A stretch of 64,000 nucleotides of DNA, taken from Candidatus Omnitrophota bacterium. Lineage in GTDB: Bacteria > Omnitrophota > Gorgyraeia > Gygaellales > Profunditerraquicolaceae. The notes beneath the pieces are model-generated. The model saw nothing but the letters and a program-made list of their open reading frames with translations, made no database searches and was not told the origin of the DNA. Made by a program: the position numbers and the translations under genes. The stretch lies in NCBI GenBank assembly GCA_043814315.1, contig JBDRKE010000033.1, forward strand, positions 10,422-74,421. Direction: 5' to 3'. Numbering within the stretch: the first letter of the stretch is position 1; the number at the start of each line of letters is the position of its first letter. Shown here one piece after another: positions 34,126 to 35,611 of the stretch.

Positions 34126-35611
34126 AGTTTTGTTTAAACCGGGCCATACCGCATGTGCGGGTTGCGGCCAGTCTTTGGCTGCCCGTTTAGTCTTAGAAGC
34201 AGCCGGCCCCAATACCATCGTGGTGAATAATACGGGCTGCCTGGAGGTGTTTTCCACAAAATATCCGGAATCCGCATGGGGCGTGCCCTGGATTCACTCT
34301 CTGTTCGAGAATGCCGCGGCTGTGGCTTCGGGAGTTGAATCCGCCTTGATTTATTTAGGTAAGAAAGAGGGGATTAATGTTATTGCCCAGGCAGGTGACG
34401 GTGGTACTGCGGACATAGGCCTGCAGGCTTTATCCGGCATGTTGGAGCGGGGGCATGATATTTTATACGTCTGTTACGACAATGAGGCCTATATGAATTG
34501 TTTAAGCATATCCTCTTCAGTCATGACAAAAGAGGGTCTTAAAAGAATAACAGAAATAAAAATTGGTGACGAAATTTGTGCTTTTGACCAAAATAACCAT
34601 CAGATGGTCATAAAGAAATGTAGTGGAGTATTTGATAATGGTAGAAAAGAAGTATTTGAGCTCAAGACCCTCTATTATTCTATAAAGGCAACAGCCAATC
34701 ATCCCTTTTTGGTTTTACAGAGAAATGAAAAAGGAGGGCATAGCAGTTTAGTTTGGAAGATGCTTAAGGATGTGGATATAGCGACTGGTGATAGAGTTGT
34801 AACATTAAAAAGCATGAATGACGATACTCCTTTTCGTTTCCTAGACTTGCATAAAAGAATGTCCGTCAGTAAAATATCCACTTTTCTTCCACAGGAACAA
34901 AAAGAGAAATTTGTTGGAGGTTTGATGCTGGCTGAAGAAGAGTTCTTGCCAGATAATAAATTTTTCCAGACTGAAGAAGTATTAAGCATAAAGTCAAAAG
35001 GAGTGGAGCCAACTTTAGATTTAAGGATAGAAGAGGAGCATAATTTTATTGCCGATGGCATCGTCGTTCATAACACGGGCATTCAACGCAGCGGCCTCAC
35101 CCCTTTTCATTCCGCGACAACGACAAGCCCCTTTGGCCGTCAATCCTTTGGAAACATCCGGCCTAAAAAACCTATGCCTGAAATTGCCCTGGCGCACGGC
35201 ATCCCTTATGTGGCCACGACCTCTGCGGGCTTCATGCAGGATTTGCAGAGAAAAGTCAAAAAGGCCCTTTCTATCAAAGGCCCCAAATACCTGCAGATTC
35301 ATGTCCCTTGTCCTTTGGGCTGGAGGCATGAGCCAAATCTAACGCTGGCCGTGGCAAAATGTGCGGTTGAGACGGGCCTTTATCCTTTAATTGAATATGA
35401 AGGAGGCGCCCTTGTGTCCCGTCGGCAGATAACACCGAAACCCGTTCAGGAGTATCTGAAAGTTCAGGGCAGATTCAAGCACCTCTTGAATGCGCCCGAG
35501 GAGATCAGGAAGATCCAGGAAATAGCGGATCATAATATCGAGAAGTACGGACTAAGTGAAAAATCACAAATTCCAAATTCCAAATCACAAACAAATCCTA
35601 ATACCCAATGA
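34115..35611 (+). CDS. porB: 2-oxoacid:ferredoxin oxidoreductase beta subunit (TPP-binding), interrupted by an intein
   Basis: CAGCG, GDGG and [15 protein letters not shown] extein motifs. 498 aa, versus about 300 aa once the insert is removed. Confidence 0.9.
   Translation: [498 protein letters not shown]
34499..35074 (+). mobile_element. mini-intein (192 aa) in PorB
   Basis: It starts [10 protein letters not shown], has block B TANHPF, and ends [13 protein letters not shown] followed by +1 Thr. The flanks join to the conserved [15 protein letters not shown]. The insert is AT-richer than the exteins. Confidence 0.88.

Follow-up and report, generated by a model that had tools for sequence, protein, structure and literature searches.

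In the genome of a Candidatus Omnitrophota bacterium, the gene for the beta subunit of pyruvate:ferredoxin oxidoreductase (POR), porB, contains an intein in its active-site loop. We examined 64,000 nucleotides of this genome (GenBank assembly GCA_043814315.1, contig JBDRKE010000033.1, positions 10,422 to 74,421 of the forward strand), a stretch that we call the window and whose own numbering we use throughout. Judged by its sequence, the segment at 34499-35074 most probably encodes a self-splicing class-1 mini-intein that decayed from a mobile intein with a LAGLIDADG homing endonuclease. A sequence-only reading of the same DNA had proposed a mini-intein at these coordinates, which fit the insert precisely: they begin at Cys1 and end at Asn192, and the next codon is that of Thr. 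The porB open reading frame (ORF) encodes a precursor of 498 aa in an unbroken frame. Its parts are listed below.

34115-35611, plus strand: porB precursor ORF including the intein, 498 aa; stop codon at 35609-35611; matches TPP_enzyme_C and Intein_splicing
34115-34498, plus strand: N-extein, precursor residues 1-128; from alignment to 9bt4_C and 1b0p, with residue spacing as in PMC5020499
34499-35074, plus strand: intein, 192 aa, precursor residues 129-320; profiles above cut-off, HINT fold and the same boundaries in homologs
34499-34501, plus strand: Cys1 codon (TGT), N-terminal nucleophile; from sequence, invariant in 77/77
34499-34819, plus strand: N-terminal splicing half, intein residues 1-107 with blocks A and B; from predicted local distance difference test (pLDDT) values and domain 1 (E = 7e-59) of a hidden Markov model (HMM) built from the intein alignment
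34691-34702, plus strand: block B T-A-N-H, intein T65-H68; T65, N67 and H68 invariant in 77/77
34940-35074, plus strand: C-terminal splicing half, intein residues 148-192 with blocks F and G; from pLDDT, invariant residues and TIGR01443
35075-35077, plus strand: Thr+1 codon (ACG), C-extein nucleophile, equivalent to Thr997 of Desulfovibrio africanus PFOR; from sequence and alignment to 1b0p
35075-35608, plus strand: C-extein, precursor residues 321-498; from alignment to 9bt4_C and 1b0p

The insert in PorB matches class-1 inteins

Three intein models recognized the insert above their cut-offs: PF14890 Intein_splicing with 51.1 bits (cut-off 35.8), TIGR01445 for the intein N-terminal region with 26.2 bits (cut-off 24.5) and TIGR01443 for the intein C-terminal region with 24.5 bits (cut-off 15.6). 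The profile check proposed in the sequence-only reading thus succeeded with each model. Using phmmer against the sequences in the PDB, we found the Ssp DnaB intein (1mi8) as the best match (E = 1e-9), with the Spl DnaX, Mxe GyrA and Npu DnaB inteins also among the top matches. An AlphaFold model of the intein built on 20 homologs had a predicted template modelling score (pTM) of 0.72 and a mean pLDDT of 78.4. Block means of pLDDT were 77-96 over intein residues 1-100 and 82-97 over residues 151-192; residues 108-147 had pLDDT below 50 and are predicted to be disordered. When this model was compared with the PDB by Foldseek, the leading matches were all inteins (6frg at 3.7e-10 and 1mi8 at 2.9e-9, then GyrA, RecA and DnaE), and E values for the solved inteins (Ssp/Npu DnaB, Mxe GyrA, RecA, DnaE) ranged from 4e-10 to 1e-6. 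BIL2 and Hedgehog Hint domains ranked below the inteins in this search.

The insert contains the complete class-1 set of splicing residues, namely Cys1, T65-x-x-H68 in block B, D174 and H181 in block F, the terminal H191-N192 and Thr+1. Alignment of 77 inteins from bacterial and archaeal PorB proteins showed that C1, T65, N67, H68, D174, H181, H191 and N192 are invariant. The hallmarks that had been quoted from the sequence (Cys1, TANHPF with its TxxH, EHNFIADG, the terminal VVHN and the +1 Thr) are all present. The insert is also AT-richer than its exteins, as had been noted, with a GC content of 0.356 compared to 0.513 in the N-extein and 0.493 in the C-extein. A further, non-catalytic cysteine, Cys41 (34619-34621), is invariant in 77/77 PorB inteins of both domains, and the aligned position of the Ssp DnaB intein has Val. 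This residue may be part of a buried core or may be a redox partner of Cys1.

Several other kinds of element were considered and rejected. Class-3 inteins have a Trp-Cys-Thr triad and a block-F Cys nucleophile and usually lack Cys1 or Ser1. Here Cys1 is present, and the T-L-D-L run in block F has the conserved Asp174 and not Cys. Bacterial intein-like (BIL) domains are Hint domains found at variable positions of variable proteins, usually with no conserved +1 nucleophile; the invariant location in the active site of a housekeeping enzyme and the conserved Thr+1 rule out this class. A plain insertion domain is ruled out by the intein profiles, the intein folds, the nucleophiles and the clean absence of the insert from orthologs, and an assembly chimera by the fact that more than 150 independent assemblies have this element in this position. 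The lower-ranking BIL2 and Hedgehog Hint domains of the fold search are what could be cited for the general proposition that the insert is something other than an intein, whether an insertion domain of this lineage, a BIL domain or an artefact of assembly. Set against the intein-specific models above their cut-offs, best folds that are all inteins, an invariant active-site motif with a +1 nucleophile and terminal His-Asn, and the shared element and site in those assemblies, this proposition has next to no probability.

The insert lies in the active-site loop of POR

The N-terminal junction reads TAT ATG AAT/TGT TTA AGC at 34498/34499 (the slash marks the splice junction here and below) and the C-terminal junction reads GTT CAT AAC/ACG GGC ATT at 35074/35075, with the Asn192 codon ending at 35074. 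Among the 120 best database homologs, 86 have the insert at exactly DNEAYMN/C...HN/TG[IV]Q and more than 30 have the uninterrupted DNEAYMN-TG[IV]QRS. Thr follows HN directly in every intein-bearing homolog and is also present in the intein-free homologs. A survey of POR beta homologs, which had been suggested as a means of telling an intein from a lineage-specific domain lacking the nucleophiles, thus revealed two states: homologs whose site is empty, and homologs that carry this element with all of its nucleophiles conserved.

Excision of precursor residues 129-320 yields a protein of 306 aa in which ...YDNEAYMN is joined to TGIQRSG.... This product aligned to the solved PFOR beta subunit 9bt4_C with no gap through the junction (E = 1e-110). 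It also aligned to the beta subunit of oxalate oxidoreductase and to D. africanus PFOR (1b0p, at residues 996/997). The spliced sequence was matched best by the PorB equivalog NF008819 (393.1 bits; cut-off 405), with the VorB-type NF008818 behind it at 334 bits, and its NF008819 match was a single unbroken stretch in which residues 3-288 covered positions 10-298 of the 300 in the profile. The statement that PorB is 498 aa long and that removal of residues 129-320 restores conserved sequence was therefore accurate. In the porB ORF itself the thiamine pyrophosphate (TPP)-binding domain was detected by PF02775 at 4e-17.

The N-extein contains G94-D95-G96 and N123, which binds Mg, and it ends at position -1 of the intein with N128, a residue of the substrate pocket. 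In the 2-oxoacid:ferredoxin oxidoreductase (OFOR) of Sulfolobus tokodaii, the Mg-binding pair is formed by GDG (89b-91b) and Asn118b, and Leu123b is the equivalent of Asn996 of the D. africanus enzyme (PMC5020499). The GDG motif and N123 of PorB have the same 28-residue spacing as D90b and N118b of StOFOR. In spliced numbering, the intein site is between N128 and T129, five residues past N123. Alignment to 1b0p places N128/T129 at Asn996/Thr997 of D. africanus PFOR, given that PDB numbers differ by one from the sequence index, as follows from GDG = Asp963. In the pocket that surrounds the methyl group of pyruvate, Asn996 forms part of the lining and turns upon pyruvate binding, and the equivalent residue of StOFOR1 influences substrate specificity (PMC5020499). 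The earlier placement of the insert in the TPP-binding motif was right about the active-site loop, but the canonical GDG...N motif ends with N123 and the site is five residues further on.

The beta subunit is domain VI, to which TPP and the proximal [4Fe-4S] cluster are bound (PMC12337175). In the alignment, Cys14, Cys17 and Cys42 are in the N-extein and Cys207 (Cys399 of the precursor) is in the C-extein. Their counterparts would be D. africanus Cys812, 815, 840 and 1071, which would make the four PorB cysteines putative ligands of the proximal cluster.

Two PorB homologs, P0126 (798 aa) and P0136 (633 aa, partial), each contain two inteins. The first, of the LAGLIDADG type, is inside the GDG Mg/TPP motif (GGDGA/CYSNDTEIL...LNGN/SYDIG) and the second is at the site found in the window (YMN/CL...VVHN/TGIQ). 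Two intein sites 32 residues apart therefore flank the TPP-binding loop. In the PorB of the window, the GDG-motif site is empty; the equivalent point is after G96/G97, at approximately nucleotides 34400-34405.

The insert contains relics of a homing endonuclease

Full-length inteins at the PorB site carry both LAGLIDADG motifs, MKYLGIFVGDGW and FVEGLMLADGY. The family LAGLIDADG_3 (PF14528) matched one of them, P0042, with 27.7 bits (cut-off 22.5) and another, P0003, with 20.2 bits, which is under the cut-off. Compared to the form of ~367 aa, the window intein is missing three blocks: one of ~63 aa that includes motif 1, one of ~35 aa and one of ~79 aa that removed everything past motif 2. With a 2-aa insertion (A95-T96), the lengths add up as 367 - 177 + 2 = 192. 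Two short remaining segments align to the endonuclease region of full-length relatives.

34841-34882, plus strand: endonuclease relic 1, intein residues 115-128; aligns to VDLHKKIFASKISA of full-length relatives
34883-34936, plus strand: endonuclease relic 2, intein residues 129-146; aligns to TLPQDQKEAFVEGLMLADGY; remnant of the second LAGLIDADG motif

At intein residues 137-146, relic 2 contains the remnant of motif 2 with the sequence FVGGLMLAE, in which the position of the motif Asp is now Glu146. The motif-2 position in the relatives is where the PF14528 LAGLIDADG_3 match starts. We scored both relics against the endonuclease region of P0003 and compared these scores to those of shuffled sequences. 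Relic 1 had a local score of 42 and relic 2 a score of 65, whereas the shuffle maxima were 34 and 36, respectively, and 0/2000 shuffles reached the score in either case. Both relics fall within the segment predicted to be disordered. A profile search detected no endonuclease family in the insert, and only 40 residues (108-147) separate the two splicing halves. The view taken from the letters that the insert has no LAGLIDADG or HNH motif is correct in that the endonuclease is gone and no endonuclease family matches, but it overlooked the relic of the second LAGLIDADG motif at residues 137-146. A mobile LAGLIDADG intein has two such motifs in an endonuclease domain of ~200 aa, as P0042 and P0003 do and the window intein does not. 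With motif 1 deleted and motif 2 truncated, the sequence of the window intein is that of a mini-intein without a functional homing endonuclease and, by its relics, the fossil of a LAGLIDADG intein.

Inteins at the PorB site are widespread and variable

When one genome was scanned for each GTDB species, 308 of them turned out to encode a relative of this intein. The locus-level counts that follow refer to 80 of the 308 genome loci. All 80 have an intein start of the form ...Y[MSA]N/CL[SAT]..., with YMN in 78, and 76 have an intein end of the form ...HN/TG[IVN]QRS; the other four stop before the C-terminal junction. By label, the bacterial hosts are Omnitrophota, Aerophobetes, Clostridia, Poribacteria, a Dependentiae genome and metagenome-assembled genomes (MAGs) labelled Planctomycetia. 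The archaeal hosts are labelled Hadarchaeota, Nanoarchaeia, Micrarchaeota, Aenigmatarchaeota, Woesearchaeota, Heimdallarchaeota, Bathyarchaeia and Methanosarcinales. Although some of these labels may be mistaken, as can happen with MAGs, the exteins differ in keeping with them. The genes porG-porD-porA are directly upstream in 57/80 loci, and several of the others end too near porB to show them.

The inteins at this site range widely in length. Most are 365-371 aa, intermediate forms are 270-349 aa and mini forms are 141-212 aa, among them the 192-aa intein of the window. The full-length form dominates in related Omnitrophota. The mini forms differ in the end points of their deletions, which means that the endonuclease was lost independently many times. 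Five minis of 153-173 aa (L018, L021, L024, L026 and L031) have a longer loop after block B that ends in a conserved CQTK; in other PorB inteins this loop is RNGRG.

On a neighbour-joining tree of the exteins, the presence and absence of the intein requires at least nine changes. The extein clade that includes the window has a full-length intein in P0005, a shortened one in P0001 and empty sites in P0078 and P0080-82. The exteins of the window are ~88-90% identical to those of their nearest homologs, whether these lack the intein (P0078, P0081) or carry it (P0005, P0001). The similarity of exteins and of inteins is not in step: P0005 is 89.6% identical in its exteins and 57% in its intein, and P0003, whose intein at 76% protein identity is the nearest to that of the window, is 82% identical in its exteins. 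In distant hosts the splicing domain is 56-67% identical to that of the window compared to 46-58% for the exteins, and the intein is more similar to its window counterpart than the exteins are in 52/66 loci. The GC content of the intein is below that of the exteins in 76/76 loci, with a mean gap of 10 points. Together, the interleaved alleles, the discordance between extein and intein similarity and the low GC content are what one would expect of a homing cycle, in which invasion is followed by decay of the endonuclease, loss and re-invasion, with horizontal spread between lineages.

In a library of 1.84 billion representative proteins, the intein matched 10 clusters at E <=1e-30 and 167 at <=1e-10. 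A scan of IMG/VR yielded only distant inteins, with 22-39% best-segment identity over the N-terminal splicing half and 43-62% identity only in short matches to the C-terminal block.

Comparison with known inteins

By both sequence (E = 1e-9) and fold (E = 4e-10, target-normalised TM-score 0.78-0.86), the closest known inteins are the Ssp/Npu DnaB mini-inteins (1mi8, 6frg, 4o1r). The Ssp DnaB intein has the same class-1 layout with Cys1 as its first nucleophile, and its blocks F and G are almost the same (VFDLTVPGPHNFVANDIIVH in 1mi8). Identity between the Ssp/Npu DnaB inteins and the PorB intein is only ~22-25%, and their host is a replicative helicase, whereas that of the PorB intein is a metabolic enzyme with TPP and Fe-S clusters. 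The solved Ssp minis had their endonuclease engineered out; in the PorB intein it was lost naturally and relics were kept. The +1 residue of Ssp DnaB is Ser, unlike the Thr of the PorB intein. The Mxe GyrA intein is a natural mini of ~198 aa with Cys1, a terminal His-Asn and Thr at +1. It matched the PorB intein at E = 5e-7 by sequence and 1e-8 by fold (1am2, 4oz6) and, like the PorB intein, has a short non-functional linker in place of the endonuclease. It differs in its host, gyrase A, in having ~20% identity and in that no LAGLIDADG relic is claimed for it.

The full-length inteins at the PorB site (P0003, P0002 and P0042; L008 and L057) have the same site and invariant residues, and their splicing domain is 57-76% identical to that of the window intein. 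With a length of 365-371 aa, they contain both motifs and an endonuclease fold, and the window copy is without ~177 aa of that region. By these sequence features, they are the same allele in mobile form. Outside PorB, the nearest inteins in the library of 1.84 billion proteins, at 35-40% identity, are the SufB (Mtu Pps1-type) inteins P0130, P0138, P0198 and P0191, which also have a host in Fe-S metabolism and contain LAGLIDADG endonucleases, but at another site in another host. P0130 at least carries two inteins.

Predicted splicing and its alternatives

Based on these comparisons, we propose the following. Translation of porB would produce the 498-aa precursor, in which the intein would fold as a HINT domain. 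An N-S acyl shift at Cys1 would be followed by trans-esterification onto the side chain of Thr+1, by cyclisation of Asn192 with the assistance of His191 and by an O-N shift to a normal peptide bond. The outcome would be the release of 192 residues and a 306-aa PorB. The ancestor of the element would have been a mobile intein of ~367 aa with a LAGLIDADG homing endonuclease, and three in-frame deletions in this lineage (~63, 35 and 79 aa) would have destroyed the endonuclease and left the two relics in a loop predicted to be disordered. The element would no longer home, and it would be kept because a working enzyme needs precise splicing. Since the insertion is in the active-site loop of domain VI and splits the putative cysteine ligands three to one, the unspliced protein should be inactive. 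We infer that the porB precursor is spliced and, from this arrangement, that POR activity depends on it.

Some observations weigh against this proposal. In an 11-sequence alignment, the window intein has five changes of its own at sites that are at least 90% conserved (L7S, H60Y, G77E, R78K and V177I) and a 2-aa insertion, A95-T96; these may be a sign of relaxed constraint. No second database sequence shares its exact 192-aa architecture, so purifying selection on this derivative is not measurable. Cys14, Cys17, Cys42 and Cys207 are putative Fe-S cluster ligands, assigned by alignment and from the D. africanus structure. Finally, the 393 bits of the spliced product are just below the 405-bit equivalog cut-off; we therefore speak of a PorB-type product whose substrate is probably, but not certainly, pyruvate.

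The same substitutions, insertion and unshared architecture, together with the decay of the endonuclease through three deletions, could also be read as the signs of a dead intein. In that case the insert would be a true intein by descent that no longer splices, porB would effectively be a pseudogene, and POR would be lost or its role taken by another enzyme elsewhere; with 64 kb of the genome in view, a paralog elsewhere is possible. We consider this very unlikely. The frame of 498 codons is unbroken, and the catalytic residues and all positions at least 95% conserved among the 77 inteins are kept, with the conservative V177I as the sole difference. The exteins are still ~88-90% identical to their nearest homologs, the porGDAB operon is whole, and there is no second PorB within the window. 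In addition, the many independent minis found elsewhere keep the same residues, as if loss of the endonuclease were tolerated and loss of splicing were not.

A working intein could also have been domesticated, with its splicing gated by redox state or oxygen, for instance through oxidation of Cys1 or disulfide trapping, and with the element kept for regulation. The invariant non-catalytic Cys41, at a position where Ssp DnaB has Val, would suit this idea, as would a host that is an oxygen-labile Fe-S enzyme of anaerobes and a splicing domain that, in distant lineages, has changed less than the host enzyme has. Splicing that depends on oxidative stress has been documented in other inteins (e.g. 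PMC6195587). However, alleles that are empty, full or decayed are interleaved and the intein was gained and lost repeatedly, which is the signature of a selfish homing cycle rather than of a regulatory module that has become fixed, and close relatives thrive intein-free. Cys41 may be a mere buried core residue, and recent horizontal transfer equally explains the higher conservation of the intein. Conditional splicing of this kind thus seems unlikely here. Its more specific form, in which the PorB intein is a conserved maturation switch where oxidation of Cys1, possibly via Cys41, stalls splicing and reducing conditions are needed to complete POR, is quite unlikely. If it were true, it would account for the stronger conservation of the splicing domain relative to the enzyme among bacteria and archaea, and the second intein site of P0126 and P0136 would make the TPP loop a preferred control point. 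We favor the self-splicing mini-intein described above.

Genomic context of porB

Pfam and NCBIfam matches show that porB is the final gene of an operon with the order porG-porD-porA-porB. The upstream genes are as follows.

32013-32555, plus strand: porG/porC, gamma subunit of four-subunit POR; Pfam POR 1e-38; TIGR02175 PorC_KorC 185 bits, above cut-off
32613-32885, plus strand: porD, delta subunit with two [4Fe-4S] motifs; Pfam Fer4 families; TIGR02179 PorD_KorD 81.7 bits, cut-off 60
32938-34125, plus strand: porA, alpha subunit; Pfam POR_N 1.7e-69 and PFOR_II 5e-30; NF040682 PorA 522 bits against a cut-off of 550

Directly 3' of porB are genes for a ferritin-like/rubrerythrin protein (35732-36211, plus strand) and a 60-aa [4Fe-4S] ferredoxin (36327-36509, plus strand), the latter a plausible electron partner of POR. 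PorB ends in a low-complexity C-terminal tail (35555-35608, plus strand) that runs past the end of the 9bt4_C match and of the intein-free homologs of ~296 aa.

Using an HMM built from the intein alignment, we found no second related intein within the window. Rfam and tRNA scans of the window revealed nothing related to the locus, and their sole match was a tRNA-Gln at 49154-49224. The dnaB gene in the window (54726-56060, 444 aa) is intein-free, as had been stated, with DnaB_C matched unbroken over 1-255 of its 255 profile positions. Elsewhere in the window, an ORF at 60381-61697 (plus strand) encodes LpxC (residues 4-274) fused to a FabA/FabZ-like dehydratase domain (residues 307-429). Large ORFs with no Pfam or NCBIfam match are at 38398-43587 (plus strand, 1729 aa), 16204-19539 (minus strand, 1111 aa) and 20836-22407 (plus strand, 523 aa).

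Annotation and significance of the PorB intein

Full-text literature searches found no published description of an intein in POR or PorB. Nor does POR appear in the main text of the leading survey of inteins (PMC4760082), whose supplementary tables may list it. The claim that POR is not a classic intein host is in keeping with that main text; on the other hand, the allele is common in databases, and some copies carry an intein label from the JGI pipeline ('pyruvate/2-oxoacid:ferredoxin oxidoreductase beta subunit/intein/homing endonuclease'). At NCBI, every intein-bearing PorB in our match list is named 'hypothetical protein' (P0004, P0006, P0036, P0073, P0092 and P0114 are among the entries concerned), and intein-free PorBs are named 'thiamine pyrophosphate-dependent enzyme'. 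Some of the gene calls are also cut short. One of these entries, P0004, is the deposited call for the genome studied here, a Candidatus Omnitrophota MAG. It is 100% identical over the 73% of the query that it covers and is 362 aa long, as expected from a start at Met137, inside the intein. Another entry, P0121, begins with MNCLS.

The host and the site are unusual and the distribution is striking; the splicing mechanism is conventional and the concept of an intein is unchanged. In the main text of the survey, 61-67% of inteins are in COG category L and 8-22% in category F (PMC4760082). With a TPP- and Fe-S-dependent enzyme of central anaerobic carbon metabolism as its host and the catalytic loop as its site, a widespread intein such as this one is outside the usual pattern of hosts in replication, repair and nucleotide metabolism. 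As a consequence of the way these genes are annotated, automated reconstructions of the metabolism of Omnitrophota, Aerophobetes, and DPANN and other archaea may score POR as incomplete or missing. Since bacteria and archaea together have it in no fewer than 308 species-level genomes, the allele provides a ready case for study of the homing cycle and of intein transfer between phyla and between domains in uncultured anaerobes.

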